From positions 1-53,839 of the forward strand of contig JAFSUH010000175.1 of NCBI GenBank assembly GCA_017445365.1: a DNA stretch of 53,839 bases, written 5' to 3'. Within the stretch, counting starts at the first letter, position 1, and every line of letters begins with the position of its first letter. Position numbers and translations under genes: made by a program. Origin of the DNA: Kiritimatiellia bacterium. Its GTDB lineage: Bacteria > Verrucomicrobiota > Kiritimatiellia > CAIQIC01 > Lenti-01. The notes under the pieces were generated by a model, which saw nothing but the letters and a program-made list of their open reading frames with translations, ran no database searches and was not told where the DNA came from. Positions 7,924-49,066 of this stretch are shown piece after piece.

Positions 7924-8019
7924 CTTCGGAACCAAACCGCAGTGCATGGCGGAATGGTGAGAACTTTTCCGCCATTGAATGCGGTTTGGTTCTTGATGTC
8001 CCCGGTCCGGCGGAGTAGG

Positions 8020-9231
8020 ATGCCGGGCATGGAAATCCAACGCATCTACGACAAGATTGTCGCCTCGCACCTTGCCAAATACCGGCAGATGGCCTTTCTC
8101 TCCGGTCCGCGGCAGGTGGGAAAAACGACCGTGGCGAAACACTTCGCACCGCATTACTTCGACTGGGACAACGTGAATGCGCGCACCCGGATTCTCAAGG
8201 GCCCCGATGCCGTTGCGGAGGCGGCGCATCTGGACACCCTCCGGGAAGGGAAGACCGTCGTGGCTTTCGACGAAATCCACAAATACCCCCGGTGGAAGGA
8301 TTTCCTGAAAGGATTTTTCGACACCTACGAGGCGGATGCGCAAGTCGTCGCGACGGGGTCGGCGCGGATGGACGTTTTCGGCAAGGGCGGCGACAGCCTC
8401 ATGGGGCGCTATTTCCCGTACCGCGTGCACCCGCTCTCCGTGGCGGAACTGCTGGGCGGCGGCTTCCCCGGCGACAAGAGCCTCCTGCGGGAACCCGCGC
8501 CGCTTGACGAAACGGAATGGCGCGCGCTTCTCGTGCACGGGGGGTTCCCGGAGCCGTTCGTGCGCCGGGAAGCGGCGTTCACCCGGCGGTGGCGGGCGTT
8601 GCGGTCGGCGCAGTTGCTCAAGCGGGACGTCCGGGACCTGTCGAACATCCAGGAACTGGCGCAACTGGAAGTGCTCGCGCGGATTCTCGCGAAGCGGTCT
8701 TCGGATCAGGTGGCGTTTTCGTCGCTTGCTTCCGAAGTGCGGGTCGGGGAAAACACCGTGCGCGGCTGGATCGAGGTCCTCAAGTCCCTCTACTTCGGCT
8801 TCACCGTGCAACCCTATTTCGCGAACATCGAAAACGCCTTGCGCAAAACGCCGAAGTGGTACCTCCGGGACTGGTCGGGCATCGCGGACGAAGGCAAGCG
8901 GGCGGAAACGTTCGTCGCCTGCCATCTCCTGAAGGCCGTGGAAGGGTGGACGGACTTGGGGCTTGGCGAATTCGCCCTGTTCTATTTGCGGGACAAGAAG
9001 AAGCGGGAGGTCGATTTCCTCGTCACGCGGGATTCCTCGCCGTGGTTCCTGGTCGAAGTGAAGAAAGGCGATGCGCCCCTTTCGCCGGCCTTGGCGCATT
9101 TCCAGGAAGCCACGGGGGCCGGACACGCCTTCCAGGTGGTTCTCGACGCGCCATACGTGCAGGCCGATCCCTTCCAACGGACGAAGCCGACAATCGTCCC
9201 GGCGCGGACGTTCCTTTCGCTCCTCCTGTAA
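8020..9231 (+). CDS. AAA ATPase, AAA_14 + DUF4143 type (paralog 2)
   Basis: Walker A GPRQVGKTT, Walker B VAFDEIH, ATGSARMD...GDSLMGR. C-terminal REVDFLV...FLVEVKKGD is a PD-(D/E)xK-like pattern. The start could be 8029. Confidence 0.85.
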   Translation: MPGMEIQRIYDKIVASHLAKYRQMAFLSGPRQVGKTTVAKHFAPHYFDWDNVNARTRILKGPDAVAEAAHLDTLREGKTVVAFDEIHKYPRWKDFLKGFFDTYEADAQVVATGSARMDVFGKGGDSLMGRYFPYRVHPLSVAELLGGGFPGDKSLLREPAPLDETEWRALLVHGGFPEPFVRREAAFTRRWRALRSAQLLKRDVRDLSNIQELAQLEVLARILAKRSSDQVAFSSLASEVRVGENTVRGWIEVLKSLYFGFTVQPYFANIENALRKTPKWYLRDWSGIADEGKRAETFVACHLLKAVEGWTDLGLGEFALFYLRDKKKREVDFLVTRDSSPWFLVEVKKGDAPLSPALAHFQEATGAGHAFQVVLDAPYVQADPFQRTKPTIVPARTFLSLLL

Positions 9232-9593: not shown

Positions 9594-10265
9594 ATGAGTC
9601 CGTTCGACACCGCCTCCAAGGGCGCTCTCCTCTTCGATCTCGACAATCTCGTCGTTTCCGCCCGCCGTCTCTACTACGCCGCGCTCAAGGAAATCGTCTC
9701 CGCCCAGGGCAAGGAACTCTCCCCCGTCCTTTTCTCCCGTTTCTTTGTCACCGGCAACGGCGCCGACATCCCCGCGCTGTACGCCGCCCTCGGTCTCGCC
9801 CCCGATGCCGCCGACGGCATCGACGGGCAGATTTCCGAAACCGTCATCCCCCGCCTCGCCGCCTCCACCGCGAAGCCCGACCAGGCCCTCTCCGACTGGA
9901 TTGCCGCCGCCCAGGCCCGCGGCGCGACCGTCGTCGCCCTCACCCGCCTTTCCGCCGACGCCGCCGAGTCCCTGCTCGCGCGCATCGGCCTGAACCCCGA
10001 AGCCGTCCGCCCCTTCACCATGGACGAGCCCGGCGACCCGGCGGCCTGGGGCAAGGCCTGCGCGTCGTTCGCAAAGCTCCCGCGCCGTTGCGTGGCGGTG
10101 GTCACCTCCTCCGACGCGGCGAAAGCCGCGCTGGCGGCGCATCTGGGCGTGGTCGCGGTCCCCGACGAGTACACGGATTTCCAGGACTTCGGCGGCGCGG
10201 ACGCGGTGGTCGGGTCCCTCAAGGAACTCGACGCGAAAGAATACTTCGATGCCATCCGCCTCTAG
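9594..10265 (+). CDS. HAD-superfamily hydrolase-like protein
   Basis: N-terminal LLFDLDNL (DxD-type motif I), about 220 aa, phosphatase-like layout. Weak call. Confidence 0.5.
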   Translation: MSPFDTASKGALLFDLDNLVVSARRLYYAALKEIVSAQGKELSPVLFSRFFVTGNGADIPALYAALGLAPDAADGIDGQISETVIPRLAASTAKPDQALSDWIAAAQARGATVVALTRLSADAAESLLARIGLNPEAVRPFTMDEPGDPAAWGKACASFAKLPRRCVAVVTSSDAAKAALAAHLGVVAVPDEYTDFQDFGGADAVVGSLKELDAKEYFDAIRL

Positions 10266-21474: not shown

Positions 21475-22329
21475 TCACGCATCCGCCGTCGGTTCCCATG
21501 CGCCGGACGGAAGGAGTTGCAAGTCTTTGACGAGACGCCGTGCCTTGTGCCGGAAGGCCGGTCTTTCGGCCTCGTGGAAGCGTTTCATGCCTAGTTCCAG
21601 AAATGCGGCCGATTGGTCGATGCCGAAAAACTTCCGCCCCAACAACCGCGCCGCGATGCCGGTCGTGCAGGAACCCGCGAAGGGGTCGAGAACCCAATCC
21701 CCCTCCTTCGTGGAAGCGAGGAGGATGCGGACGAGGAGCGAAAGCGGTTTTTGCGTGGGATGCTTGCCGAACGTCTTTTCCCAGCGGCCGATGGCGGCCA
21801 GCGGCCACACGTCGCGCATCTGTTTCCCGCCCGCCAGTTTGCGCATGAGGGAGTAGTTGAAAAAATGCGGCGTTTTCGCTTCGCGCCGCGCCCAGATCAC
21901 GAACTCGGCCGAATGCGTGAAATAGCGGCAGGAAAGGTTGGGCGGCGGATTCGTCTTCTGCCAGACGACGACGTTCAGGATTTTGTAGCCGAGTCCGGCA
22001 AGCGCGTTGGCGGTTTGGAACGTGTTGTGGTGCGTGCCGCTGATCCACACCGTTCCGGACGGCTTGAGGATGCGGCGCAACGCTTCGAGCCACCGGCGCG
22101 CGAAGGCGGCGTCCGCCTCCCCGCCGCGCGATTTGTCCCAGTCGCCCTTGTCCACGCAGACCTGCCGCCCGCTTTGCACGGAGATTCCGCCGTTGGAAAG
22201 GAAATACGGCGGATCGGCGAACGCGCAATCGAACTGGAACCCCTTCCGGGCGATTTCCTCCATCCACTCGACGCAATCGCCGCACCCGAGCGCCCAGCGC
22301 GCGTCGGGCGATTTGAAAAAGGGTTGCAT
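21475..22329 (-). CDS. beta-class N6-adenine (or N4-cytosine) DNA methyltransferase, second methylase of the RM cassette
   Basis: DPPY (FADPPYFL) precedes the AdoMet motif DPFAGSCTTG. The ATG overlaps the endonuclease stop (TGATG). Confidence 0.85.
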   Translation of the reverse strand: MQPFFKSPDARWALGCGDCVEWMEEIARKGFQFDCAFADPPYFLSNGGISVQSGRQVCVDKGDWDKSRGGEADAAFARRWLEALRRILKPSGTVWISGTHHNTFQTANALAGLGYKILNVVVWQKTNPPPNLSCRYFTHSAEFVIWARREAKTPHFFNYSLMRKLAGGKQMRDVWPLAAIGRWEKTFGKHPTQKPLSLLVRILLASTKEGDWVLDPFAGSCTTGIAARLLGRKFFGIDQSAAFLELGMKRFHEAERPAFRHKARRLVKDLQLLPSGAWEPTADA

Positions 22330-23252
22330 CACGGCGAGAGAATCTCCCCGAGGATGCCGGTCAGCAGGTTCTTCCCGCGGACGGCGGCGAGATTGAGGAG
22401 GTAGTCGGCTTTCTGGCAATACTCCCGCAGGGGCGCTTGCGTTCCCTTCCATCCGTAGCCGTCGGTGATCCAGAGGAATTCCACGCGCCGTTGCCGGGAA
22501 TACCGCTTGAACATTTCGCAGTATTCGGTTGCCGTTGATTTCAGTTTCGACCCGCCGCCGCCGTAGAAATTCGTTTCCAGGAGGAACAGGCGGTCGTCCC
22601 GGAAAATCGCGAAATCGACGCGGCGCTCGGATTTGTCCATTTGCAGGTCGAAGTCCCAATGCGCCTTGATCTTGGCCTTGGTCGCCTGCGCCATGTAGTC
22701 GGCGTGCAACGCCTCCGCCGTTTCCACGACGAAATTCTCGACGAGCGATTCCATCAGGTCTCCCGAGCGGTTCTTGCGCGCGTTGCTGTCGAGCCCGACC
22801 TCGATTCCGAAGTAGTAGTCCGGAATGCTCTTGACCTTCCGGTCGGCGAGGATGTCCAGAAGCCCGCTCTGCCGGAGGAAGCGGACGCACGAGGCGATGT
22901 CGGCCGCGGAAGGCGCACGCCCCTCGAAATCGAAGCGTTTGACGAGGAGTTTTTTCGCATCCACCATGACGTCGAAAGAGTGCTCGCGGGAGGCAAGAAG
23001 CAACGGCATCACGCGGAGGACTTTCGGATAGTCGGCGATGAGCGATGACAAATCGCGCTCGATGTCCTCGGATCCCACGAGCGTGTCGAGCAGGGCCAAT
23101 TCCCGGACGTGCGGTGCCACGTTTGCCTTTACGCGGTTCCAATCCACGAACCAATCGCTCCGGTGGATGGTCGGAATGAGCGTGTCGATGAGGAAGCGGA
23201 AGGATTCGTCCTCGTTCCGGCATCCGAGGAGGGCCGTTTCGATCGGGTTCAT
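22329..23252 (-). CDS. DpnII/MboI-family type II restriction endonuclease (GATC-type by family)
   Basis: 307 aa. Layout and segments (FGIEVGLDSNARKNRSG, DFAIF...LLETNFYGGGGSK) recalled from the DpnII family. Sandwiched between two methylases with overlapping start/stop codons. Confidence 0.75.
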   Translation of the reverse strand: MNPIETALLGCRNEDESFRFLIDTLIPTIHRSDWFVDWNRVKANVAPHVRELALLDTLVGSEDIERDLSSLIADYPKVLRVMPLLLASREHSFDVMVDAKKLLVKRFDFEGRAPSAADIASCVRFLRQSGLLDILADRKVKSIPDYYFGIEVGLDSNARKNRSGDLMESLVENFVVETAEALHADYMAQATKAKIKAHWDFDLQMDKSERRVDFAIFRDDRLFLLETNFYGGGGSKLKSTATEYCEMFKRYSRQRRVEFLWITDGYGWKGTQAPLREYCQKADYLLNLAAVRGKNLLTGILGEILSP

Positions 23253-24169
23253 GAGGGGACTCCGTTCGTGAAATTGGAGACAAGGATTTCGCCGAGTTTT
23301 CCGCGCCTGTCCGCCTTCGCGTTGACCATTCGCGAAGCCTGGACGCCTCGGATGTCGAATCCGGCGTAGAGTCCGTCGAAAAAGGTGTCGCCGGGGTCCG
23401 TCCCTTTCGGGTCGGAATTGCTGAGGAGCCAGCGGACGCCTTTGCGGTCCAAGGTGCGGCAAACGTCGGCGAGGCGGTGTTGCTCCCTGTCGTCGAAGCC
23501 GCCTTGCGTGTAATCGCGGAACCCCGACGTGGCCGAAATCGGCCGGTAGGGCGGATCGAAATAAACAAACCAATCCGGCCCGGCCCCGGCAAGGGCATCC
23601 GCGAAGTCGCCGTCGAGGATTTCGACTCCCGCAAGCGCCGCCGAGTCGGCCAGCAACGTTTCCCGGTCGCAAATCCGCGGATTCGCGTAGCGTCCGAAAG
23701 GGACGTTGAACGCACCTTTCGCGTTCACCCGGTAAAGCCCGTTGAAGCAGGTGCGGTTGAGAAAGAGCATTCGGGCCGTCCGCCGGACGGGATTGTCCGC
23801 GCAATCGGCAATGGCGGCGTTGTAGGCGTCGCGCACGGCAAGGTAGAACGCGCGGCGGTCCTCCTCTCCGGTTCGGGCGCGGTAGTCCGTTTGAAGTTCA
23901 TCCAAGGCTTCGACCAGTTCGGCGGCATGCGATTGGACAACCCGCCAGGCATTCGCGAGATCGGGATTCGAATCGTTGACAACGACCCGTTCCGGGCGGA
24001 GACCCTTGGCGAGAAGATGGAACAGCAACGCCCCGCCGCCGACGAACGGCTCCGCATAGACACGGACCGTCCTCTTGAAATCCTCCGGCAACCGGGCATC
24101 CAGTTCTGGGAGCAGTTGCGTTTTCCCGCCAGCCCATTTGATGAATGGTTTTATCGTCTCTCGTTTCAT
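23249..24169 (-). CDS. dam: Dam-family (alpha-class) DNA adenine methyltransferase
   Basis: IKWAGGKTQLLPEL, EPFVGGGALLF (FxGxG) before FDPPYRP (DPPY). The stop overlaps the endonuclease ATG (ATGA). Confidence 0.9.
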   Translation of the reverse strand: MKRETIKPFIKWAGGKTQLLPELDARLPEDFKRTVRVYAEPFVGGGALLFHLLAKGLRPERVVVNDSNPDLANAWRVVQSHAAELVEALDELQTDYRARTGEEDRRAFYLAVRDAYNAAIADCADNPVRRTARMLFLNRTCFNGLYRVNAKGAFNVPFGRYANPRICDRETLLADSAALAGVEILDGDFADALAGAGPDWFVYFDPPYRPISATSGFRDYTQGGFDDREQHRLADVCRTLDRKGVRWLLSNSDPKGTDPGDTFFDGLYAGFDIRGVQASRMVNAKADRRGKLGEILVSNFTNGVPS

Positions 24170-24260
24170 GCTCGCGATGCGTCCTGCATCGCGGCGGACA
24201 TGGAGAGACGAAAAAGCGCGTTCTCGAATCCATGCCCTCCTCGGAAGCCCTACCACAGGC

Positions 24261-24320
24261 TGATCAGATTACACGGAGAGAACGCGCCCGGAGGGGCGCG
24301 TCTGCTGATGAATCTGATCA
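24261..24320. promoter_or_regulatory. nested inverted repeat with two GATC sites upstream of the RM operon
   Basis: tgatcagat (24261-24269) and atctgatca (24312-24320) flank the GC hairpin gcgccc-ggag-gggcgc. Lies 90-150 nt upstream of the dam start. Confidence 0.3.
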
Positions 24321-24494
24321 AAGCCGCAGGCTTCAATCGGTACGACGGAAGGAAACGTGTGGTAGTATTTCCGAGGAGGCGTCGTTTAGCAGATCGCTAA
24401 AAGGTTGGATTGTTCAAGGCGGGATGCTGGGTGGGAACGGTTCTCCGTGGGGGTGGATTTCCTGCGCGGCGGATGCCGCGGAACGATGGAATCA

Positions 24495-26193: not shown

Positions 26194-28185
26194 ATGACAA
26201 ATCTTTCCAAAACAGGGTTCGATATCGTCGTCGTCGGGGCCGGACATGCCGGTTGCGAGGCAGCCTTGGCAGCGGCGCGGATGGGTGCCGATACCGCCTT
26301 GATTTCCTTCTCGATCGAGGCGGCGGCGCGGATGAGCTGCAATCCCTCCATCGGAGGAATCGCCAAGTCCCACATGGTTTTCGAGTTGGATGCGCTGGGA
26401 GGGGAGATGGCCCGCAACACGGATGCGACCGGCCTCCAGTTCCGCGTGCTCAACACCCGGAAAGGCCCCGCCGTCCAGGCAAACCGCGCCCAATGCGACA
26501 AGGCCGCCTATGCCGCACGCATGGTGCATGTCCTCCGCGCAACGGCGAATCTGGCGCTTTTGGAAGACGATGTGACCGGCGTGCTTGTCGAAAACGACTG
26601 CATCACAGGCGTGAGGACTCTCCATCATGGCAATCTCTCCGCCAAGAAAGTAATCCTGACGGCGGGGACCTTTCTCAAAGGACGGATTTTCGTGGGAAAG
26701 GATTGCACGCCGGGCGGTCGCATCGGGGAAGATTCGGAAGAAACCTTGAGTGGACAGTTGAAGGACATCGGCTTTGAGGTGTCTCGCATGAAGACAGGAA
26801 CGCCCCCCCGCCTCAAGAAGGAATCCCTGCATTACGACAAGATGGTGCGGCAGGACGGTTTCAATCCGCCCCCGTTCTTCAGTTTCGAGGCGCGGGAAGC
26901 GGTCGATGCGCTTGTTCCACGTGGAACATTGAACGACGTATTTCCTGTCCCGCACGCCAGTAACGGAGATTCGACGCGCCTGGCGGAATCTCCTGTTCCA
27001 CGTGGAACATCGGAAAATGATTTCGCTCGCACGGCCCCGTTTTCCGGGATTTCTTTCGGTGTTTTGCCGTTTTCCCATTGGAAACCGGGGAGTGGTGAAA
27101 TGCCGTGTTTCCTGACGCACACAACGCCGAAAACGATGGAGATCATCCGCTCGCACCTCAAAGATTCCGCTCTTTACGGCGGTCTGATCGAGGTTGGAAG
27201 TCCGCGTTATTGTCCTTCCATCGAGGACAAGGTCGTCAAGTTCCCCGGGCGGGAAGAACACCACGTTTTCATCGAGCCGGAAGGGCGGGATGCCCCGCAA
27301 ATTTATCCGAACGGAACAAGCAACAGTCTTCCCTTGAATATCCAAGTGGAAATGATTCACAGCATCCCGGGTCTGGAGGATGCCGAGTTTTTCGCGCCGG
27401 GGTACGCCATCGAGTACGATTTCTTTCCTCCGACGCAGTTGCGACACTCCCTAGAAACAAAAAAAGTTGAAGGTCTGTATTTTGCTGGGCAGATCAACGG
27501 AACGACCGGATACGAGGAAGCCGCGGTGCAGGGATTCATGGCCGGCGTCAACGCCGCCCGTAGCATCGGGGGATTGCCACCGCTCGTCTTCGCCCGACAC
27601 GAGGCCTACATCGGAGTTTTGATTGACGACTTGGTGACCAAGGGGACCAATGAGCCATACCGGATGTTCACCTCCCGGGCGGAACACCGCCTGCTTCTCC
27701 GGCAGGACAACGCCATTTTCCGATTGCGGAATGCCGCCAAGGAAATCGGCATCGTGGACAAGGGCAAAATCGCGAAAATCCAAGAATTCTTGAGGGAAAT
27801 CGACGAAACGAAAAATCGTTTGCACCACACGAAATCCGGCGGGATAACGATTGCAAAACGCATACTTCAATCAAATACTGATTATGCGACTATGCGGGAA
27901 ATCGGGGCGCTTCCGTCTTTCGTGCGGCAGGAGGTGCTGTTTTCGTTGCGGTATGCCGGATACATCGAGCGGGAGGAGCGGAAAATCGCTTCTGCCCGGA
28001 ATCTGGAAGAAACCGCGATTCCCCAAACCTTCGATTTCATGTCTCTGGCGGCGTTGCGCTACGAGGCGCGGGAGAAGCTTTCGGCCATCCGCCCGGCGAC
28101 CTTGGGCCAGGCTTCCCGCATCTCGGGTGTCACCCCTGCCGACATCGCCATTCTCGCCGTCTGGCTCAAACGCGCCGGAACCTGA
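26194..28185 (+). CDS. mnmG: tRNA uridine 5-carboxymethylaminomethyl modification enzyme MnmG (GidA), with a lineage-specific insertion
   Basis: DIVVVGAGHAGCEAA, MSCNPSIGGIAKSH, KTGTPPR, GPRYCPSIEDK-type (SPRYCPSIEDK), GQINGTTGYEEAA, PYRMFTSRAEHRL, GQASRISGVTPADI. Confidence 0.95.
   Translation: MTNLSKTGFDIVVVGAGHAGCEAALAAARMGADTALISFSIEAAARMSCNPSIGGIAKSHMVFELDALGGEMARNTDATGLQFRVLNTRKGPAVQANRAQCDKAAYAARMVHVLRATANLALLEDDVTGVLVENDCITGVRTLHHGNLSAKKVILTAGTFLKGRIFVGKDCTPGGRIGEDSEETLSGQLKDIGFEVSRMKTGTPPRLKKESLHYDKMVRQDGFNPPPFFSFEAREAVDALVPRGTLNDVFPVPHASNGDSTRLAESPVPRGTSENDFARTAPFSGISFGVLPFSHWKPGSGEMPCFLTHTTPKTMEIIRSHLKDSALYGGLIEVGSPRYCPSIEDKVVKFPGREEHHVFIEPEGRDAPQIYPNGTSNSLPLNIQVEMIHSIPGLEDAEFFAPGYAIEYDFFPPTQLRHSLETKKVEGLYFAGQINGTTGYEEAAVQGFMAGVNAARSIGGLPPLVFARHEAYIGVLIDDLVTKGTNEPYRMFTSRAEHRLLLRQDNAIFRLRNAAKEIGIVDKGKIAKIQEFLREIDETKNRLHHTKSGGITIAKRILQSNTDYATMREIGALPSFVRQEVLFSLRYAGYIEREERKIASARNLEETAIPQTFDFMSLAALRYEAREKLSAIRPATLGQASRISGVTPADIAILAVWLKRAGT
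26913..26928. promoter_or_regulatory. parS: parS-type centromere site 1 (TGTTCCACGTGGAACA)
   Basis: Perfect 16-bp palindrome. 15/16 match to the chromosomal parS consensus TGTTNCACGTGAAACA. Confidence 0.7.
26994..27009. promoter_or_regulatory. parS: parS-type centromere site 2 (TGTTCCACGTGGAACA)
   Basis: Identical 16-mer 81 bp downstream of site 1. Confidence 0.7.
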
Positions 28186-28506
28186 ATTTTCAGATTTCGT
28201 TCCAAAGTCGCGAATTGCATGTTTTCCCCATCAATGGGGGAGGGGCCCCCAATGACGGTTCGATTCTTCGCTTTTCCTTTGCTGTTCGGCTAAATCCTTG
28301 TTAAAAGAAATCTACATTCTGTTTGATTTCCCCATGTCCTTTCTTCCCGATTCCCAATCTCTTCTATTACGTCATGCCCCGTTTTTCTGGCGTATGATGC
28401 GTTTTGTCTTCGCGAGAAACAGGAATTTGGGGTTGGGTGACGCCATGTCTGGGGAAACGATTTTACGGATATTTTCTTCCGCCATCAGCAACGAAGGCAG
28501 CATCCA

Positions 28507-29802
28507 ATGACTGATTTCCGTCAAGACCCCCGCTTTGCCGATCTCGCGCCTTTCCCGTCAAAACTTTGGCTGTCTTCCCCCACCATGCACGGGAAAGAAT
28601 TGCACTGGGTGGAAGAGGCCATCCGCACCAACTGGGTCACCACGCTCGGCGAAAACATCAACGAAGTCGAACGCGCCACCGCCTCCCTCGTCGGGCGCAA
28701 GTGTGCCGTCGGCCTTTCCGCCGGGACCGCCGCCCTCCACCTCGCCGTCAAACTCTGCGGCGAAGCCCTCTACGGCCAGCCCCGCGCCGGACACGGCACC
28801 CTCGAAGGCCATCGCGCCTTCTGCTCCGACCTCACGTTCGACGCAACCGTCAATCCTGTCTCCTACGAAGGGGGCGAAGCCGTCTTCGTCGATACTGAAC
28901 GCGACACCTGGAACATGGATCCTGCCGCCCTCGAAAAAGCTTTCGACCTTTATCCGGACGTGCGTCTCGTCGTTCTCGCCCATCTCTACGGAACGCCTGC
29001 CAGAATTGGCGAAATCCGCGCCATTTGCGACGCCCATCGCGCCTTGATCGTCGAAGACGCCGCCGAATCCTTCCTCGCTACCCACCAGGGCCGCCAGACC
29101 GGTACTTTCGGCGATGTCTCGATTTTTTCCTTCAATGGCAACAAGCTCGTCACCGGCAGTTCGGGCGGGATGCTCCTGACCGACAACCCCGAATGGGCGG
29201 ATAAAACCCGCAAGTGGTCCACCCAGTCGCGCGAAGCCGCCCCGTGGTATCAGCACGAGGAGCTCGGCTACAACTACCGGATGAGCAACATCGTCGCCGG
29301 CGTCGTCCGCGGGCAGCTTCCATACGCAGCCGAACACCGCGACCAAAAGAAGGCCATCTACGAGCGCTACAAGGCAGGCCTTGCCGACCTTCCCGTCTCT
29401 TTGAACCCGTTCCTCCCCGACGACGAGCCGAATTTCTGGCTCTCCTGCCTTTTGGTCGACACCGACGCGATGGCACCGCAAGTCCGCGGCGAACGCGACG
29501 CGCTCTACCGCCACGAGCCGGGCAAGTCATCGCCGACGGAAATCTTGGAAGCGCTCGCGGCTTTCAACGCCGAGGGCCGCCCCCTCTGGAAGCCGATGCA
29601 CCTGCAGCCGATCTACCGCATGAACCCGTTCGTGACGACAGCGGGCAGCGGCCGCGCCCGTTCCAACGCCTACATCTCCGGCGGCGCACCCGACGTCGGC
29701 GCCGACCTCTTCGCCCGCGGCCTGTGCCTGCCCTCCGACAACAAGATGACGCCCGATCAACAGGCCCTCATCATCGACATTGTCCACCGTTGTTTCCGAT
29801 GA
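28507..29802 (+). CDS. DegT/DnrJ/EryC1/StrS-family PLP aminotransferase (EpsN/PglE-like sugar aminotransferase)
   Basis: 431 aa. Contains FSFNGNKLVTGSSGGMLL (PLP-lysine region) and the N-terminal WVTTLGENINEVE pattern. Confidence 0.88.
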   Translation: MTDFRQDPRFADLAPFPSKLWLSSPTMHGKELHWVEEAIRTNWVTTLGENINEVERATASLVGRKCAVGLSAGTAALHLAVKLCGEALYGQPRAGHGTLEGHRAFCSDLTFDATVNPVSYEGGEAVFVDTERDTWNMDPAALEKAFDLYPDVRLVVLAHLYGTPARIGEIRAICDAHRALIVEDAAESFLATHQGRQTGTFGDVSIFSFNGNKLVTGSSGGMLLTDNPEWADKTRKWSTQSREAAPWYQHEELGYNYRMSNIVAGVVRGQLPYAAEHRDQKKAIYERYKAGLADLPVSLNPFLPDDEPNFWLSCLLVDTDAMAPQVRGERDALYRHEPGKSSPTEILEALAAFNAEGRPLWKPMHLQPIYRMNPFVTTAGSGRARSNAYISGGAPDVGADLFARGLCLPSDNKMTPDQQALIIDIVHRCFR

Positions 29803-30137
29803 CCCCGCCCCCGGCAAAACCATGCACCCCCGGCACCCCGGACGGCGAAGGCGTCCTCTCCTCAAAACGACAATGTCCCGATAAAAATCGAATCGTTGAT
29901 ATGTTGCGCCAACAACCCGGCCTCAACCGCAAACAACTGGCAGACATACTCTCGGTGGAGATCAAGACCGTTACCCGGGCTTTGGCGGAACTCACCCACA
30001 TGGTCGAACACCGTGGCAGAAGAAAACCTGCGGCTACCATCTCGTCTCTCCGCCCCACGAGTCTCCGTCCGCGTCGGATCCGACCGTGCCGGCCATTGGA
30101 AAGTCCTCGTTCCGCCGTTGCATGGGAACGGAAATAG
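29799..30137 (+). CDS. winged-helix (wHTH) protein, probably disrupted at its 3-prime end
   Basis: The ATG overlaps the aminotransferase stop (ATGA). HTH segment IVDMLRQQPGLNRKQLADILSVEIKTVTRALAEL. The conserved C-terminal VRVGSDRAGHWKVLVP is present but in another frame (ORF 29896..30144). Confidence 0.35.
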   Translation: MTPPPAKPCTPGTPDGEGVLSSKRQCPDKNRIVDMLRQQPGLNRKQLADILSVEIKTVTRALAELTHMVEHRGRRKPAATISSLRPTSLRPRRIRPCRPLESPRSAVAWERK

Positions 30138-30170
30138 TGTGTAATGTTCCCTCATCGCCAAGGAGTGAAC

Positions 30171-30461
30171 ATGCCGACCATTGAATCTATAGTGAAACCA
30201 CGCGGGAGCCGTATCAGCGTGGCCGTCCCGAAGGAGTACGCCTCGTATTCCTTCCAAGTCATACTTGTCCCCATCCGCCCCGAAGAACCTTCCGGGGCGA
30301 AACCCGCCCCGCGTTCCGCCCGGCAAATGCAATCCCTCGCCGATGCCCTTCTGTCCCTCCCCTCTCCGGGCGATGACTGGTCCCCCGACGCCTCCCGTGC
30401 CGACGACCCTCCATCGTTCTTCGAGCGCTCCGGCGGATTCTGTTCGGAGGCATTCGCTTGA
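30171..30461 (+). CDS. putative antitoxin of the VapC toxin
   Basis: AGGAG RBS 5 nt upstream. 96 aa. The stop overlaps the TTG start of the PIN gene. Family not recognised. Confidence 0.5.
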   Translation: MPTIESIVKPRGSRISVAVPKEYASYSFQVILVPIRPEEPSGAKPAPRSARQMQSLADALLSLPSPGDDWSPDASRADDPPSFFERSGGFCSEAFA

Positions 30462-30880
30462 AATACCTCATCGATACCTGTGTCGCTTCGGAATCCGCAA
30501 AACGCACGCCTTCCGGGGCCGTGACGCAATGGTTCGCCTCCGTCCCGGCTGCAGACGTATTCATTCCTTCCGTCGCCCTCGGCGAACTGTACAAGGGCAT
30601 CTCCCGGCTTGCGCCGGACGATCCCAGGCGTCCCCGGCTCGTTGACTGGCTGGAGAACCTCCGGAATGTATTCGCAGGCAGGATTGTCGCCTTCGACGAA
30701 CGTGCCGCCGTGACGTGGGGCCGCCTTTGCGGCGAAGCCGAACGCGCAGGACGCAAACGCCCATCCATCGACGCCCAGATCGCGGCCATCGCGCTGGCCA
30801 ACGGCATGACCCTCGTCACGCGCAACGTCGATGACATGGCGGGATTCGACGCCCCCATCTTCAACCCTTTCCCGCCCTGA
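30458..30880 (+). CDS. vapC: PIN-domain ribonuclease toxin VapC
   Basis: KYLIDTCV (first acidic residue), SIDAQIAAIALANGMTLVTRNVDDM (conserved D and TRN.D tail). Confidence 0.8.
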   Translation: MKYLIDTCVASESAKRTPSGAVTQWFASVPAADVFIPSVALGELYKGISRLAPDDPRRPRLVDWLENLRNVFAGRIVAFDERAAVTWGRLCGEAERAGRKRPSIDAQIAAIALANGMTLVTRNVDDMAGFDAPIFNPFPP

Positions 30881-30888
30881 CCGAAAGG

Positions 30889-31080
30889 TTGCCAGAAACA
30901 GCGGTCGCCATTCTTTCGGCCATGAACAAAACCCCAGCCATTACCATCGCCGAATTTTCCACAGCCTTGGACATCTCCTCCAGCGCCGTCGAAAAACACA
31001 TCTCCCGCTTCCGTTCGCGCGGCCTTCCCGTCCGCGTCGGCTCCGACCGTGCCGGCCATTGGAAAGTCCTCGTTCCATGA
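30889..31080 (+). CDS. small wHTH protein (intact copy)
   Basis: ITIAEFSTALDISSSAVEKHISRFRSRGLPVRVGSDRAGHWKVLVP. TTG start at 30889, or ATG at 30922. Confidence 0.45.
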   Translation: MPETAVAILSAMNKTPAITIAEFSTALDISSSAVEKHISRFRSRGLPVRVGSDRAGHWKVLVP

Positions 31081-31158
31081 GTTGCTTCTCCTTTTGTGAT
31101 TCTGGCTCTGCAAGGCATTTGCCGCGTTTGGACACTTGTCGAGCCAACGGGAATTTCA

Positions 31159-31247
31159 CCCGCGGGCTGTGCCTGCCTTCCGACAACAAGATGACGCCCT
31201 TCCAGCAAGATTTAGTCATCGACATCATCCACCGTTGCTTCCTATGA
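31159..31247 (+). pseudogene. duplicated, diverged 3-prime end of the aminotransferase gene
   Basis: Encodes RGLCLPSDNKMTPFQQDLVIDIIHRCFL*, versus RGLCLPSDNKMTPDQQALIIDIVHRCFR* for the true gene end (29713-29802). Confidence 0.7.
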
Positions 31248-31966
31248 CCATGGCTTCATCTCTTCCTGTCAACTCCGCCCCTCTCCGCATTCTCGTCGTC
31301 GCCGCCCATCCCGACGATGAGGTTCTCGGCATGGGGGGAACCATTGCCAAACTTGCAGCCAACGGGGCCGAAATCAAACTTCTCATTGTCACCGACGGAT
31401 CATCTTCCCAATACCGAGGCAATCCCGACCTTCCGGCCATCATCGAGGCGAAAAAAGAGGAAACGGCCCGTTGCGCCGCCATTCTCGGCATCCGGGAAAT
31501 TCTCCATGGGGGTCTCCCCGACATGCGTCTTGACATCACACCCCATGTCCAAATCAACCAGATTATCGAGTCGGCCGTCGAGTCGTTCCGCCCTTCCGTC
31601 GTTTTTACCCACTTTTCCGGCGACATCAACGCCGACCACCAGCGCGTCAGCCACTCCACGCTTGTCGCGTGCCGCCCAACCGCATCCCAATGCGTGAAAC
31701 GGCTCTATTTCTATTCCGTCCCTTCATCTACCGAATGGAACGCCCCCGCCGCAACCAACGCTTTTCTTCCCAACGTCTTTTTTGACATTTCCGGCCCCTG
31801 CGCCGACCTCAAGTACCGGGCCTTTGCCTGTTACGGAACCGAGCTCCGTCCCTATCCCCACCCGCGCAGCGTCCAATATCTCCAAAATGCCGACGCCGCC
31901 GTCGGCAACCGCGTCGGTCTCCCGTCCGCGGAAGCTTTCATGCTTGTCCGGTCCGTCAACCCATGA
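31244..31966 (+). CDS. PIG-L/LmbE-family N-deacetylase
   Basis: ILVVAAHPDDEVLGMGGTIAKL motif. The ATG overlaps the remnant stop (ATGA). Confidence 0.85.
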   Translation: MTMASSLPVNSAPLRILVVAAHPDDEVLGMGGTIAKLAANGAEIKLLIVTDGSSSQYRGNPDLPAIIEAKKEETARCAAILGIREILHGGLPDMRLDITPHVQINQIIESAVESFRPSVVFTHFSGDINADHQRVSHSTLVACRPTASQCVKRLYFYSVPSSTEWNAPAATNAFLPNVFFDISGPCADLKYRAFACYGTELRPYPHPRSVQYLQNADAAVGNRVGLPSAEAFMLVRSVNP

Positions 31967-32625
31967 CCCGCGCCTATCCAGTTTGCAAACGAGCGTTTGA
32001 CATCGTTGCGGCATCTTTGGCCACCGTCGTTTTCCTCATTCCGTGGCTTCTCATCGCTCTTGTCATCAAACTCCAATCCCCCGGACCGGTCATCTACAAG
32101 GCCACCCGCATCGGAAAGGACGGTCGGCCCTTCACTCTCCTCAAATTCCGCACCATGCGCGTCGACAGCGGTCGAATCCGCCTTACCACCCTTCGCAACG
32201 ACCCTCGCGTGTTTCCCTTCGGGGCCTTCCTGCGAAAAACCAAATTGGATGAGACTCCCCAACTTCTCAACATCCTTGCCGGGCACATGTCCGTGGTCGG
32301 GCCCCGTCCCGAAGACCAAATCAACTCCGGCAAGCTCTATGTAGGCCCCTTCGCCCGCATCCTTTCCGCCAAGCCGGGCCTTTCCAGTCCCGCCAGCCTT
32401 TACGATTACACCCACGGCGAAACCTACCCTTCCGAAGAACTCTACCTCCGCGACTTCGAGCCGAAAAAACTCGCCGTGGAACTCTATTACGTCGACCATC
32501 AATCCTTCCTCTACGACCTCCAAATCATTTTCCGCACCATCGCCACCATCACACTCATCGCCTTCGGCAAGCGTTCTTTCGATCCTCCCCGCGAGCTTGC
32601 CCTTGTGGAGGGGACAAATGCTTGA
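31963..32625 (+). CDS. small (PglC/WbaP C-terminal type) initiating sugar-phosphate transferase
   Basis: KRAFDIVAASLA..., one TM, KFRTM, DPRV..FGAFLRKTKLDETPQLLNILAGHMSVVGPRP. Confidence 0.9.
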   Translation: MTRAYPVCKRAFDIVAASLATVVFLIPWLLIALVIKLQSPGPVIYKATRIGKDGRPFTLLKFRTMRVDSGRIRLTTLRNDPRVFPFGAFLRKTKLDETPQLLNILAGHMSVVGPRPEDQINSGKLYVGPFARILSAKPGLSSPASLYDYTHGETYPSEELYLRDFEPKKLAVELYYVDHQSFLYDLQIIFRTIATITLIAFGKRSFDPPRELALVEGTNA

Positions 32626-43761: not shown

Positions 43762-43838
43762 CCGCGCGGCCTGATTCGGCCGAAAGTTGCCCGAAATCAA
43801 GTTTCTTTGTTTCGAGAAAGTTGTTTTGTTGCATTTTG
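43762..43838 (+). repeat. repeat A, copy 1 (77 bp, identical to 45601-45677) upstream of ATPase 1
   Basis: ccgcgcggcctgattcggccgaaagttgcccgaaatcaagtttctttgtttcgagaaagttgttttgttgcattttg. Confidence 0.95.
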
Positions 43839-43902
43839 TATGAAATACCGTAATACAACTTCCCGGATTGCTTAAATTTTCGGCGAATGCCACAATCCCG
43901 GC

Positions 43903-45081
43903 ATGTTGATTGCACGCCAAATGGAAGCTGCCATGAGAGCCTCGGCGGAAGAGTATCCCGTCCTGACCGTTGTCGGCCCCCGTCAATCGGGAAAAACGAC
44001 TTTGGTCAGGACTCTCTTTCCATCGAAACCCTATCAAACGCTGGAAACACCCTCCACCCGCCTCCGCGCGGAAAGCGATCCCCAGGGGTTTCTGGCATCG
44101 TTTCCCGATGGGGCCATCCTCGATGAAGTCCAGCGCGTGCCCTCCCTCCTTTCCTACATCCAAGGCATCGTGGACGAAAAGAACCGGAACGGACTTTTCG
44201 TTTTGACGGGGTCCGCCAACCTTCTTTTGATGCAAAACGTCAGCCAGTCCTTGGCCGGGCGATGTGCCGTATTCACCCTTTTGCCCTTCAGTCTCGCCGA
44301 AGCGGCGGGCGTTCTTCCCTCCGACTCCCCGCTTTCCGCCATCCTTTGCGGGGGCTATCCCCGCCTTCTTGTCCGGGGCATGGGACGCCCGCGTTTCTTC
44401 GCCAACTACATCGACACCTATGTCGAGCGCGACATCCGCCAACTTCTCAACATCAAGAACACGCTTCTTTTTTCGCGATTCCTGCGCCTTCTGTCCGGGC
44501 GGGTCGGATCGCTCCTCGATCGCACGTCGCTCGCGAACGATTGCGGCATCTCGACGAAAACCGTCGCTGAATGGTTTTCCGTCCTCCAAGCTTCCTCCAT
44601 CTGCTTTCTTCTCCCTCCTTGGCATGACAACCGCGGCAAGCGCCTTGTCAAAACCCCGAAAATCTACTTCCACGACACCGGCCTGGCCTGTGCCTTGGCC
44701 GGAATCGAAACCGAGCGGCAGCTCGAACGCGATCCGCTCCGCGGCGGGCTTTTCGAAAACTTGATTGTTTTGGAAGCTTTGAAGCGCGCCCTCAACGCCG
44801 GTCGGAAACCCGATTTGTATTTCTACCGGGATGCCAACGGTGTCGAAATCGATCTTGTCGAACAGCGGGCGGGATGTCTCCATCCCGTCGAAATCAAGTC
44901 TTCGGCGACTTTCCATCCCGATTTTTGCAAATCCCTCTTCACCTTTGCCGCCCGCCATCCCGGACGTTGCGATTCGCCGTCCCTCGTCTATGGCGGGAGG
45001 GAACGTTTCATCCACAAGGGCGTTTCCGTCCTGCCTTTCGCAAATGCGTTTCCGCCGCTCTCCGAAGCGCCGGATGCATGA
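43903..45081 (+). CDS. AAA ATPase, AAA_14 + DUF4143 type (paralog 3)
   Basis: GPRQSGKTT, AILDEVQ, LTGSANLLLMQNVSQSLAGR. C-terminal VEIDLV...HPVEIKSS is a PD-(D/E)xK-like pattern. Confidence 0.85.
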   Translation: MLIARQMEAAMRASAEEYPVLTVVGPRQSGKTTLVRTLFPSKPYQTLETPSTRLRAESDPQGFLASFPDGAILDEVQRVPSLLSYIQGIVDEKNRNGLFVLTGSANLLLMQNVSQSLAGRCAVFTLLPFSLAEAAGVLPSDSPLSAILCGGYPRLLVRGMGRPRFFANYIDTYVERDIRQLLNIKNTLLFSRFLRLLSGRVGSLLDRTSLANDCGISTKTVAEWFSVLQASSICFLLPPWHDNRGKRLVKTPKIYFHDTGLACALAGIETERQLERDPLRGGLFENLIVLEALKRALNAGRKPDLYFYRDANGVEIDLVEQRAGCLHPVEIKSSATFHPDFCKSLFTFAARHPGRCDSPSLVYGGRERFIHKGVSVLPFANAFPPLSEAPDA

Positions 45082-45600: not shown

Positions 45601-45677
45601 CCGCGCGGCCTGATTCGGCCGAAAGTTGCCCGAAATCAAGTTTCTTTGTTTCGAGAAAGTTGTTTTGTTGCATTTTG
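45601..45677 (+). repeat. repeat A, copy 2 upstream of ATPase 2
   Basis: 77/77 identical to 43762-43838. Confidence 0.95.
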
Positions 45678-45718
45678 CAAAACGCGCCGCTAGTGTACCC
45701 GCGGCAGGAAACACCGAG

Positions 45719-46867
45719 ATGAATGCAAATCCTTTCGTTTACGGGAAAGAAGTGGCCGGGGAGAATTTCTACGACCGCCGGGAAGATTTTTCCCGGCTGG
45801 TTTCGACCTTGGAGGGAGGGGCGGCCAATGTCGTCCTGTATGCGCCCCGGCGCTACGGCAAGACGTCGCTGGCGAAAAAAGCGCTCGGCGAACTGGCACG
45901 GCGGGGCTTCCGGTGCGTTTATTTCGATTTCATGCGCGTGGAATCCGTCCCGAAATTCTGCGAGGCCTATGCTTCTTCCGTGTATGCACTGGAACGAGGG
46001 ACCGTGCGCGCCATGCGCAGGATCGGGAAAACCCTCTCGGCATTGCGTCCCCGCTTCACCGTCGGCGACGACGGGAAGCCCGCCCTCGAACTCGACTTGG
46101 GCGTGAAGCCGACGGTCGCGACCCTCGAAGAAACGCTCGACCTTCCAGAAAGGCTGGCCGACCCGAAACATCCCGTGGTCGTGGCCTTCGACGAATTCCA
46201 GGAAATCGGCACGCTATCCCCGTCCCTTCCTCTCGAGGGCGTTTTCCGCGGCTGCATCCAACGCCACCGCCTGGTCCGCTATTTGTTCCTGGGCAGCAAA
46301 ACCCACATGATCAAGCGGATGTTCGCCGATCGTTCCCGTCCGTTCTACAATTCCGCGGCCATCCAACGTCTGGACGTGCCCTCCGGGGAGGAGTCGGCGG
46401 CCTTCGTCGAAGCGCGATTCGCGTCCGTGGGGATGCGAATCGAAAAGGATGCCGTCCAAACCGTGCTGGAAATGTCCAAGGGGATTCCCTACTACGTCCA
46501 AGCCCTGTCCGCCCTGTCCTTTGAGGAAGCGGTGGCCGCTCCGGTCCGGCATCCGGTGTGCGTTGGCGATGTCGAATCGGCTGCAAGGCGTTTGCTCGAA
46601 TCCAAGAGCGATGTTTACGAAAGCGTTCTCCAAGCCCTCTCCGCGTCGCAACGGACCCTTCTTGCGGCACTTGCGCGCAAGCCCGTCCGGCGCTTCGATG
46701 CGGGTTTCCGCGCCGCCAACGGAATCGGAACGTTGTCCGGGCTTCATTCCGCACTGGCCGTGCTGCTTGAAAAAGGCCATGTGGAAGCCACCCTGCGCGG
46801 ATATGAAATCGGCGATCCGTTTTTTGCCCGCTATCTCACGGAGTCCGTATTCCATGTCATTGAATGA
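45719..46867 (+). CDS. ATP-binding protein of the archaeal-type ATPase (PF01637-like) family
   Basis: NPFVYGKEVAGENFYDRREDFSRL, Walker A APRRYGKTS, Walker B VVAFDEFQE. Probable C-terminal wHTH region. Confidence 0.8.
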   Translation: MNANPFVYGKEVAGENFYDRREDFSRLVSTLEGGAANVVLYAPRRYGKTSLAKKALGELARRGFRCVYFDFMRVESVPKFCEAYASSVYALERGTVRAMRRIGKTLSALRPRFTVGDDGKPALELDLGVKPTVATLEETLDLPERLADPKHPVVVAFDEFQEIGTLSPSLPLEGVFRGCIQRHRLVRYLFLGSKTHMIKRMFADRSRPFYNSAAIQRLDVPSGEESAAFVEARFASVGMRIEKDAVQTVLEMSKGIPYYVQALSALSFEEAVAAPVRHPVCVGDVESAARRLLESKSDVYESVLQALSASQRTLLAALARKPVRRFDAGFRAANGIGTLSGLHSALAVLLEKGHVEATLRGYEIGDPFFARYLTESVFHVIE

Positions 46868-47053
46868 ATTCCCGTCTCGCATCGGGCCTCCTCCCGTTCT
46901 GCTGCTTTTGCGCAGCTCTTGCGGACGCGTTTGTACTTTTGTCCGTTCCACTCCTTCGCAAAAAATTGTTTCGAGCGGGAGAGAATGCCGGGGGAATCGG
47001 ATTCTCCTGCAGGCAGGGTTCGCGGCGGGAAAGACCATCTTGAAAGACATCGC

Positions 47054-49066
47054 ATGAAAGCATTGATTTTGAATTCCGGTCTCGGTTCCCGCATGGGCGT
47101 GCTCACTTCCGAACACCCCAAGTGCATGACGGAGGTTTCGCCGCGGGAGACCATCCTCTCCCGGCAACTGAACCAGCTGGCGGAAGTCGGCATCACGGAC
47201 GTGGTGATGACGACCGGCCCCTTCGACGGGGTGCTCGAAAACTACTGCCGCTCGCTCGACCTGCCGCTGGACATCCGGTTCGTCAAGAACCCCGTGTACG
47301 ACAAGACGAACTACATCTACTCCATCCATTGCGCGCGGGAACTCCTGCTCGACGACGACATCCTCTTGATGCACGGCGACCTCGTTTTCGAAAACGAGGT
47401 TCTCGACATGCTTCTGGCCGCCCCCGGCTCCGCGATGGCCGTTTCCTCCACCCTGCCGCTCCCCGAAAAGGACTTCAAGGCGGTCGTCCGCGACGGCATG
47501 GTGCAGAAGGTCGGCACCGGGTTTTTCGGGGAAGGGGCGATGGCGGCCCAGGCGCTTTACAAGCTCGACCGGGCCGATTGGCGGCTCTGGCTCGACAAAA
47601 TCGCGGCTTTCTGCGAGGCCGGAAACACCGGCGTCTACGCCGAAAACGCCCTGAACGAACTCGACGGGGCCGCCAACATCCGCGCGTGCGACGTTCGCGA
47701 CCTCCTGTGCGCGGAAATCGACAACCCCGACGACCTCGCCGCCGTTTCCGCCAAGCTCGCCGCCGTCGAATCGCGCACCGTGTACGCGGTTTTCTCGACC
47801 GACATCCTCCACGGCGGGCACGTCGCCATCCTCCGCAAGGCCGCGCGCCTCGGTCGCGTCATCGTGGGGGTCCTTTCCGACGAAGCCGTCGTCGCGTACA
47901 AGCGCTTCCCGCTCGTTCCCGCCGCGGAACGAAAGAAACTTTTCGAGAGCATCGCGGGCGTCTGGAAGGTGGTGGACCAGCGGACGCTTTCCTACCGGGA
48001 AAACCTTGCAAAGTACCGCCCCGACATCGTGGTCCACGGCGACGACTGGTGCCAGGGCTTCCAGAAGCCCGTCCGCGACGAAGTGGTGGCCTTGCTTGCC
48101 GGATACGGCGGCCGTCTCGTGGAGTTTCCGCATTCCGACGCGCCCGAATACCGCGAAATGGAAGCGCGCGCCCGCGCCGAACTCTCCCTCCCCGACATCC
48201 GCCGCGCCCGGCTCAGGAAGACCCTCGAAATGAAGGGGTTCGCGACCGCGATGGAAGCGCACAGCGGCATCACCGGGCTTATCGTCGAAAAGACCAAGGT
48301 GTACCAGGACGGCGGCACGCACCAGTTCGACGCGATGTGGGTTTCCTCGCTCTGCGACTCCACCGCGAAGGGCAAGCCCGACATCGAGCTGGTGGACATG
48401 ACCAGCCGCTTCCGCACCATCGACGACATCATGGAAGTGACGACCAAGCCCATCATCTTCGACGGCGACACCGGGGGACTCGCCGAGCACTTCGTCTACA
48501 CGGTCCGCTCGCTGGAACGGATGGGCGTCTCCATGGTCATCATCGAGGACAAGACGGGGCTCAAGAAGAACTCGCTCTTCGGGATCGAAGTCGCCCAGAC
48601 GCAGGACAGCATCGAAAACTTCTCCGCGAAGATCCGCGCCGGGAAGAAAGCGCAAAAAACGCGGGATTTCATGATTTGCGCGCGCATAGAGTCGCTCATC
48701 CTCGAGCGCGGCATGGAAGACGCGCTGGCGCGGGCATCCGCTTTCGTCGAAGCCGGAGCGGATGCCATCATGATCCACTCGCGCAAGAAAGACCCTTCCG
48801 AAATCAAGGAGTTCATCCGCCTCTTCCGCGAAAAGGACCCGACCACGCCCATCGTGCTGGTGCCGACCTCGTTCAATTCCGTGACCGAAGAGGAATGGAA
48901 GGCTCTCGGCGCGAACATCGTGATTTACGCGAACCAGCTCACCCGCACGGGCTTTCCGGCGATGCAGAACGCGGCCAAAACCATCCTCGAACACCACCGG
49001 GCGAAGGAATGCGACGCGATGTGCATGTCCATCAAGGACATCATCACGCTCATTCCCGAAGAGTAG
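47054..49066 (+). CDS. pepM: three-domain protein: LicC/PntC-like nucleotidyltransferase + HxGH cytidylyltransferase + phosphoenolpyruvate mutase
   Basis: N-terminal MKALILNSGLGSRMG (GxGxR NTP-transferase). Middle VYAVFSTDILHGGHVAILRKA (HxGH). C-terminal PEP mutase with IIEDKTGLKKNS (EDKxxxxxNS signature). Confidence 0.88.
   Translation: MKALILNSGLGSRMGVLTSEHPKCMTEVSPRETILSRQLNQLAEVGITDVVMTTGPFDGVLENYCRSLDLPLDIRFVKNPVYDKTNYIYSIHCARELLLDDDILLMHGDLVFENEVLDMLLAAPGSAMAVSSTLPLPEKDFKAVVRDGMVQKVGTGFFGEGAMAAQALYKLDRADWRLWLDKIAAFCEAGNTGVYAENALNELDGAANIRACDVRDLLCAEIDNPDDLAAVSAKLAAVESRTVYAVFSTDILHGGHVAILRKAARLGRVIVGVLSDEAVVAYKRFPLVPAAERKKLFESIAGVWKVVDQRTLSYRENLAKYRPDIVVHGDDWCQGFQKPVRDEVVALLAGYGGRLVEFPHSDAPEYREMEARARAELSLPDIRRARLRKTLEMKGFATAMEAHSGITGLIVEKTKVYQDGGTHQFDAMWVSSLCDSTAKGKPDIELVDMTSRFRTIDDIMEVTTKPIIFDGDTGGLAEHFVYTVRSLERMGVSMVIIEDKTGLKKNSLFGIEVAQTQDSIENFSAKIRAGKKAQKTRDFMICARIESLILERGMEDALARASAFVEAGADAIMIHSRKKDPSEIKEFIRLFREKDPTTPIVLVPTSFNSVTEEEWKALGANIVIYANQLTRTGFPAMQNAAKTILEHHRAKECDAMCMSIKDIITLIPEE

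Follow-up and report, generated by a model that had tools for sequence, protein, structure and literature searches.

How did a toxin-antitoxin module, bracketed by what look like small regulator genes and by two sets of repeats, come to lie between two neighbouring genes of a surface-polysaccharide operon? The question is raised by contig JAFSUH010000175.1 of a Kiritimatiellia bacterium (GenBank assembly GCA_017445365.1), of which positions 1 to 53,839 of the forward strand were analysed; this whole stretch of 53.8 kb is called the window. In it a block of 1.35 kb separates the gene of a DegT/DnrJ/EryC1-type sugar aminotransferase (DegT) from the gene of a PIG-L family deacetylase (PIG-L). An initial annotation described the block as a cassette within a cassette, with winged helix-turn-helix (wHTH) genes around a VapBC pair, a picture that would imply discrete mobile units. 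The data fit better with a stack of orphaned gene 3' ends around an intact toxin-antitoxin module, left at a hot spot by recombination without a recombinase, a reading to which we give a probability of roughly 0.55.

Arrangement of the block and its repeats

The block runs from the intact DegT gene through a wHTH stub, a 49-bp stub of an AlbA_2-type gene, the toxin-antitoxin module, a 198-bp AlbA_2 stub, 74 bp of spacer and a 93-bp DegT stub to PIG-L. Every piece has the same orientation, and the stubs are all 3' ends of genes. The features, all on the plus strand, are the following.

28507-29802, plus: intact DegT/DnrJ/EryC1-type sugar aminotransferase gene, 431 amino acids (Pfam PF01041, E = 1.3e-68)
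29710-29802, plus: outer repeat copy 1, the final 93 bp of the DegT gene
29803-30064, plus: wHTH1, frameshifted 3' stub of a gene with a terminal winged-helix domain (sub-threshold Pfam matches, phmmer)
30065-30113, plus: 49-bp repeat copy 1, the outermost 3' piece of an AlbA_2/HATPase_c_4-type gene, orphaned
30114-30170, plus: conserved region 5' of the toxin-antitoxin module, putative promoter/operator and ribosome-binding site
30171-30461, plus: candidate antitoxin open reading frame (ORF), 96 amino acids, co-conserved with the toxin
30458-30880, plus: PIN-domain toxin, VapC/FitB-like, 140 amino acids, apparently intact (PF01850)
30883-31080, plus: wHTH2, 3' stub with the last 63 codons of a SLFN_AlbA_2 + HATPase_c_4 + wHTH gene
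31028-31076, plus: 49-bp repeat copy 2, inside wHTH2
31081-31154, plus: 74-bp spacer between wHTH2 and the DegT stub
31155-31247, plus: orphaned DegT 3' end, last 30 codons and stop, of another allele
31244-31966, plus: gene of the PIG-L family deacetylase, which natively follows DegT (PF02585, E = 6.8e-29)
31963-32625, plus: Bac_transf gene, directly after PIG-L (PF02397, E = 5.7e-53)

Both repeats reported by the initial annotation were found again on recomputation, with its coordinates off by 1-4 nucleotides (nt). The outer repeat covers 95 nt (29710-29804 and 31155-31249) at 82% identity, whereas the inner one covers 49 nt (30065-30113 and 31028-31076), of which 48 are identical. A blastn comparison with the whole window gave two copies of each (E = 2e-21 for the outer and 3.6e-18 for the inner repeat) and no third copy of either. 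The ATGA overlap described for both DegT tails can be read directly, at 29799-29802, where the DegT stop meets the start of the next ORF, and at 31244-31247, where the stop of the stub meets the PIG-L start.

The source being metagenomic, strains could have been joined chimerically at the repeats, and contigs of one sample do break near 30098 and 30159. However, a 10.7-kb stretch with both repeats and the wHTH1 frameshift in it is 99.98-100% identical in separately assembled contigs from other samples (ERZ28653718, ERZ28653955, ERZ28654026, ERZ28019165 and ERZ28019131). At least three other samples have contigs across the whole block, further samples cover parts of it, and the assembly k-mer of 141 is longer than either repeat. 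An assembly artefact, the outcome that would have removed the duplicates from discussion, is therefore excluded for practical purposes.

The two wHTH reading frames and the spacer

wHTH2 matches the end of a 516-amino-acid gene found in a Kiritimatiellae metagenome-assembled genome (L102-104), to which it is 85.9% identical over 198 bp of DNA and 79% identical over 63 residues of protein; only 3 nt separate the VapC stop from the start of this homology. That gene has the full SLFN_AlbA_2, HATPase_c_4 and wHTH architecture. The AlbA_2 and HATPase_c_4 domains are absent from the block, which retains no more than the final 63 codons in wHTH2 and the final 16 in the first 49-bp copy, and both pieces are therefore stubs and not members of the AlbA_2/HATPase_c_4 genes. 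The wHTH2 ORF itself (30889-31080) passes the Pfam HTH_24 cut-off (25.4 compared to 21.9). The 49-bp repeat corresponds to the last 49 bp of an AlbA_2-type gene (…RVGSDRAGHWKV…) and aligns with the end of the 516-amino-acid gene; its first copy is an isolated piece of such an end and encodes PVRVGSDRAGHWKVLVP in a third frame.

The wHTH1 ORF (29799-30137) starts within the ATGA overlap of DegT. Its frame breaks at about 30020-30030, in or beside an AAAA run, where '...VEHRGRRK' resumes as 'TCGYHLV' in the next frame, and it is out of frame with the first repeat copy, as was already noticed in the initial annotation. It stays below all Pfam cut-offs (the best match, MarR, reaches 22.6-23.1 compared to 24.6), and its phmmer matches are the same wHTH proteins as those of wHTH2, which places both in one broad family. 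The AlbA_2 gene of L102 was tried as its parent and rejected, with a BLASTP E value of 0.61, an exact DNA match of only 14 nt and no DNA similarity to the stub. With wHTH2 colinear with the end of a longer gene and wHTH1 a frameshifted fragment, the two supposed wHTH genes are, as judged from these alignments, dead gene ends. An apparently structured cassette can in this way mislead when read from sequence alone, two of its four ORFs being dead gene ends.

For the spacer, an origin as a 'B-type' stub was considered and rejected: the score against L189 was reached by 32 of 1000 shuffles, and the region downstream of the L102 AlbA_2 gene and AAA_16-type gene ends did worse. The spacer and the DegT stub together form a chimeric ORF of 56 amino acids (31077-31247), also called in L002, L004 and L005, the start of which overlaps wHTH2 by ATGA.

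The two DegT tails

The closest relatives of the DegT gene are 89% (L100), 85% (L102, a Kiritimatiellae metagenome-assembled genome) and 85% (L105) identical to it. Its final 93 nt match the second tail at 76 positions, and tails of different lineages match each other at 74-85 of the 93. The distance between the two tails is thus that seen between lineages, and the second tail comes from another allele and not from a fresh duplication in situ, in agreement with the origin first proposed for it. The longest identical block between the two tails is 21 nt (TCCGACAACAAGATGACGCCC), and several of their differences lead to residues that are common in functional homologues. From the second tail onwards, window positions 31155-32625 align contiguously with the DegT tail, PIG-L and Bac_transf of L105. 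The 30 amino acids of the tail are too conserved across the family to place it more closely, and its DNA is roughly equidistant from all relatives.

The DegT-PIG-L junction in relatives

The junction is empty, with DegT and PIG-L joined by an ATGA overlap, in L105/106 (DegT 85%, PIG-L 72%) and L187/188 (PIG-L 80%). These are the relatives with the aminotransferase directly before the deacetylase for which a search had been proposed, and compared to such an ancestral junction the 1.35-kb block is an insertion. The order DegT, PIG-L, Bac_transf, with DegT abutting PIG-L, is found even in distant gut Clostridia (L015, L020, L021 and L022).

Other relatives carry different inserts. L100/101 are syntenic with the window, mnmG included, and have a DegT of 89% identity followed by a 3.5-kb insert with an AAA-ATPase_like/PDDEXK_9 gene, a 57-amino-acid ORF and an AAA_16-like gene of 524 amino acids. 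In L102-104 the DegT gene (85%) is followed by AAA_16, the 516-amino-acid SLFN_AlbA_2 + HATPase_c_4 + wHTH gene, PrpD and AAA_14/DUF4143, and in L189 about 125 bp separate the end of an AlbA_2-type wHTH from PIG-L (PIG-L 77%), which comes after it. An arrangement shared by all related loci would have spoken for an ancient fixed feature, but the relatives differ at this junction. Since the relatives hold either empty or differing junctions, the junction is on these comparisons a variable hot spot, documented here for a gut phylum about which little is known and within one of its surface-polysaccharide operons. A scan of GTDB genomes with PIG-L gave no relative above 67%, and a metagenome alignment scan with PIG-L gave, among the matches listed, only relatives of at most 55% identity with generic, uninformative patterns.

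L100 has a repeat of its own, a perfect direct repeat of 127 nt (L100:8248-8374 and 9824-9950). It consists of the last ~122 bp of the AAA_16-like 524-amino-acid gene plus 'CATGA', duplicated just upstream of that gene's own start. Each copy precedes an ATG, namely the start of the AAA_16-like gene and then the start of PIG-L. The length of 127 nt is a common SPAdes k-mer, and the repeat needs a read-level check; an independent Logan contig of the locus ends 30 nt into copy 1.

Two further junctions in distant Clostridia were observed, one with a VanZ-like gene and an 80-amino-acid ORF between DegT and PIG-L (L010:5336-5979), the other with a 280-amino-acid ORF that has no Pfam match (L024:2138-2980).

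The toxin-antitoxin module

The candidate antitoxin and the FitB-like PIN toxin are apparently the only intact unit in the block. The toxin passes PF01850 (45.3 bits compared to a cut-off of 23.6) and matches FitB (PDB 2H1C) over residues 4-138 with E = 3.5e-15. Its D6, E43 and D105 align with the acidic residues of FitB, whereas the fourth position is N123 (D in FitB), both in the window and in close homologues. The toxin start overlaps the antitoxin stop (TTGA), and in six contexts the antitoxin is conserved together with the toxin, at an amino acid identity of 55-80%.

The 96-amino-acid antitoxin gave no match in NCBIfam, in PADLOC, in a PDB profile search or, with E values up to 0.1 admitted, in Pfam, and none of the known DNA-binding classes of VapB/FitA (ribbon-helix-helix (RHH), AbrB, Phd/YefM, HTH) was matched. 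The pair was named VapBC earlier, but its antitoxin could not be assigned to any VapB class. A single-sequence AlphaFold model of the antitoxin was uninformative (pLDDT 60.7). The protein has a conserved N-terminus and an invariant C-terminal SFFERSGGF motif. It may belong to an undescribed family partnered with FitB-like PIN toxins and, unclassified as it is, may merit description.

The module (30112-30880) recurs at 78-85% DNA identity in four other neighbourhoods and at 64% in a fifth. A PhdYeFM antitoxin gene and an AAA_14 gene flank it in L090-94, and it is found after a PIN-like gene in L098, after the apparent end of a substrate-binding protein gene in L099, before a large repeat protein in L096/97 and, at 64% identity, beside a restriction-modification pair in L095. 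The homology starts at a conserved GCCGTTGCA…AAATAGTGTGTAATG…AAGGAG region, nearly invariant in five contexts from GCCGTTGCA onward. It ends at the VapC stop in three contexts and elsewhere at other points within about 35 nt of the stop; a site-specific mechanism is made less likely by this variation of the exact ends. Searches for relatives of the module in viruses and plasmids found none.

The region upstream of the antitoxin has a small inverted repeat over TTGCAT (30118-30123), TGTAAT (30140-30145) and AAGGAG (30160-30165), motifs from which a putative promoter/operator and ribosome-binding site can be inferred. A simple promoter scan did not flag this region. In L096:940-975 and L098:1030-1065 a GC-rich imperfect palindrome is shared 10-35 nt after the VapC stop; it is absent in the window, L090 and L099 and may act as a terminator or may mark where the module once ended.

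Origin of the block

On the reading that we prefer, the junction would hold one working unit, the toxin-antitoxin module from promoter to stop, and four scars: the frameshifted wHTH stub, the 49-bp and 198-bp AlbA_2-type stubs, and the 93-bp stub of an older DegT allele fused to PIG-L. DNA from related lineages would repeatedly have recombined into the junction, anchored by homology on either the DegT or the PIG-L side, the data being silent on which. The other end would have been joined illegitimately inside a resident gene, and each event would have pushed the 3' remnant of that gene downstream. Such a process would be homology-facilitated illegitimate recombination, as proposed for the 'C-terminal displacement' of Rhs loci and for effector-immunity arrays of type VI secretion (T6SS). 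The nearly identical 49-bp repeat may stem from a recent partial tandem duplication of the toxin-antitoxin module with the 198-bp stub, or from a misaligned join.

Toxin-antitoxin modules show addiction behaviour. Deletions that lose the antitoxin would be lethal, and the neighbours could for this reason have been eroded up to the promoter and the stop of the module. That the module is intact to exactly these limits would fit with such behaviour, and the locus offers a clean example of a toxin-antitoxin module left whole while its surroundings are eroded to exact functional limits, in line with an addiction or anti-deletion view of such loci on chromosomes. The stacked 3' stubs record, on a small scale and in a datable form, recombination that had no recombinase, and could be used in studying gene flow in uncultured Kiritimatiellae.

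Several observations weigh against serial anchored replacement. The parent gene of wHTH1 was not found in the comparisons made, and the spacer has no significant similarity to L189, L100 or L102, its origin likewise not being found. Sliding-window identity along DegT gave no clear mosaic breakpoint, and the base composition is not anomalous in the GC and third-position GC (GC3) profiles, DegT having a GC fraction of 0.63 compared to 0.60 for the window. The best DegT is 89% and the best PIG-L 80% identical, and no intermediate state of the window lineage was found among the relatives; the order and number of events are therefore inferred only and amount to a model. Natural competence and toxin activity are assumed here. 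In L100, moreover, the full gene copy comes after its 3' stub, an order that one-sided displacement would need an extra duplication to produce.

The main alternative is that a single L102-like island between DegT and PIG-L decayed in situ by internal deletions and one partial tandem duplication, with no repeated import. The L102-type island does carry the gene whose end is wHTH2, and what the repeats enclose, 963 bp in the window and 1576 bp in L100, is hardly longer than a single unit, as in partial tandem duplications. Decay leaves unexplained, however, why a second DegT tail diverged by 18% stands beside PIG-L, and it needs at least three deletions that each run from a gene end into the next gene. 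A history of deletions alone is possible for the inner part of the block, but as an account of the whole, in-situ decay seems rather unlikely, though it deserves more weight than any other rival. The topology would also fit the remnant of a site-specific integrative element that targeted the DegT 3' end, supplied a surrogate tail and later lost its integrase: the two tails would be attL and attR, the left one being the replacement tail on the intact gene, the right one the native tail that was displaced, with the 21-nt identical block shared between them. But the inserts of L100 and L102 start after the DegT stop, and a second DegT tail is lacking in the DNA covered, which in L100 extends to PIG-L and in L102-104 about 6 kb beyond DegT, short of PIG-L; no integrase is seen among the window ORFs scanned, and no viral or plasmid relatives were found. 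We regard such an element as improbable.

The original picture of a functional, mobile wHTH-VapBC-wHTH cassette, in which two small regulators bracket the toxin-antitoxin pair inside a larger cassette, draws on the complete winged-helix domain that wHTH2 keeps above the HTH_24 cut-off and on the many single-domain proteins of this kind that exist. It is hard to reconcile with the frameshift in wHTH1 and with wHTH2, which has no start signals of its own, begins 3 nt past the VapC stop and corresponds colinearly to the terminal part of the 516-amino-acid gene. The proposed search for other wHTH-VapBC-wHTH units found none, flanking wHTH ORFs being present in 0 of 5 other module contexts, and we consider such a cassette very improbable, slightly more so than the integrative element. 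The statement that no recombinase is present stood for the ORFs scanned: a Pfam search of the cassette ORFs and 20 flanking ORFs, which did not scan the window exhaustively, gave no integrase, transposase or recombinase. No terminal inverted repeats were found at the block ends. Integron cassettes were rejected as an origin, as no IntI was seen and no imperfect downstream repeat (attC) is shared across the module contexts. A transposon or insertion sequence was also rejected, in view of the missing transposase and inverted repeats and of direct repeats of 49 and 95 nt, the longer 18% diverged.

The window, the perfect 127-nt 3'-end duplicate of L100 and L189 could be parallel signs of a more general process that stacks cassettes in Kiritimatiellae polysaccharide operons without a recombinase, capturing genes at ATGA junctions with duplication or displacement of 3' ends and keeping translational coupling to the glycan genes downstream. 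We hold this wider generalization to be doubtful. If true, 'C-terminal displacement' would reach beyond the loci of polymorphic toxins into metabolic operons of the ordinary kind, and toxin-antitoxin modules would act as anti-deletion anchors. The case at hand is a fresh example of known processes and does not overturn current understanding.

Comparison with known systems

For Rhs, contact-dependent inhibition (CDI) and T6SS arrays it has been described that homology anchors the incoming DNA at one end while the other end is joined illegitimately, and that the resident 3' end is displaced downstream (Kirchberger et al. 2017, PMC5361080; on displacement arrays see also Jackson et al. 2009, as cited in PMC5361080). 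The block resembles the displacement arrays of Rhs loci, CDI orphan modules and Vibrio T6SS in its conserved upstream anchor and its co-oriented orphaned 3' fragments pushed downstream: downstream of the intact DegT gene there is a DegT stub of 93 bp, and one AlbA_2-type gene is represented by two stubs. The displaced genes are here, however, a sugar aminotransferase and an AlbA_2-type gene and not polymorphic toxins, and the block contains no pairs of toxin C-terminus and immunity gene, so that no selection keeping the stubs is evident. The block works like a displacement array but is not a member of that class.

The module shares with type II systems of the VapBC/FitAB kind a FitB-like PIN toxin after a small co-conserved ORF with stop/start overlap, an upstream inverted repeat and a patchy, mobile distribution. 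It differs in its antitoxin, which gave no match to the known VapB/FitA classes, in the asparagine at the fourth acidic PIN position and in a toxin that stays below the NCBIfam VapC equivalog cut-offs.

Variable hot spots and defence islands flanked by core genes occur in bacterial pan-genomes. The DegT-PIG-L junction is similar to these in that one site holds different cargo by lineage (ATPases, nuclease-like genes, toxin-antitoxin), but it differs in lying inside a polysaccharide biosynthesis operon with its cargo in the co-transcribed orientation. PADLOC gave no defined defence system in the cargo beyond weak domain matches. With integron cassettes the block has in common small, promoter-proximal, co-oriented and stacked units with toxin-antitoxin among them, whereas no IntI or attC is seen in the window and the ends of module homology vary.

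Expression and further observations in the window

ATGA or TTGA overlaps link DegT with wHTH1, antitoxin with toxin, wHTH2 with the 56-amino-acid ORF, this ORF with PIG-L, and PIG-L with Bac_transf. No convincing terminator was found within 28100-32000. As the block is co-oriented, has no strong terminator and keeps this chain of overlaps, read-through expression of the downstream glycan genes is plausible.

No Rfam families or tRNAs were found in the window. In the region 22329-24400 a DpnII-type restriction endonuclease gene (PF04556, minus strand) lies upstream of mnmG, and a D12-class methyltransferase adjoins it according to the gene calls of L006. Three paralogous AAA_14/DUF4143-type ATPase genes are present within 54 kb (6259-7518, 7942-9231 and 43903-45081), and the same gene type is found 3' of the toxin-antitoxin module in L090-94 and within the L102 island. 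At the far end of the glycan locus, just upstream of the third of these genes, a fragment (43787-43894) resembles the first 35 amino acids of an ATPase_2/AAA_16-like gene at 45626-46867 (56% amino acid identity, E = 9e-6), a further echo of a gene end by an orphan ATPase. Beside the polysaccharide locus, 46919-49066 encodes a 715-amino-acid fusion of nucleotidyltransferase, cytidylyltransferase and PEP mutase domains, which suggests phosphonate decoration of the glycan.

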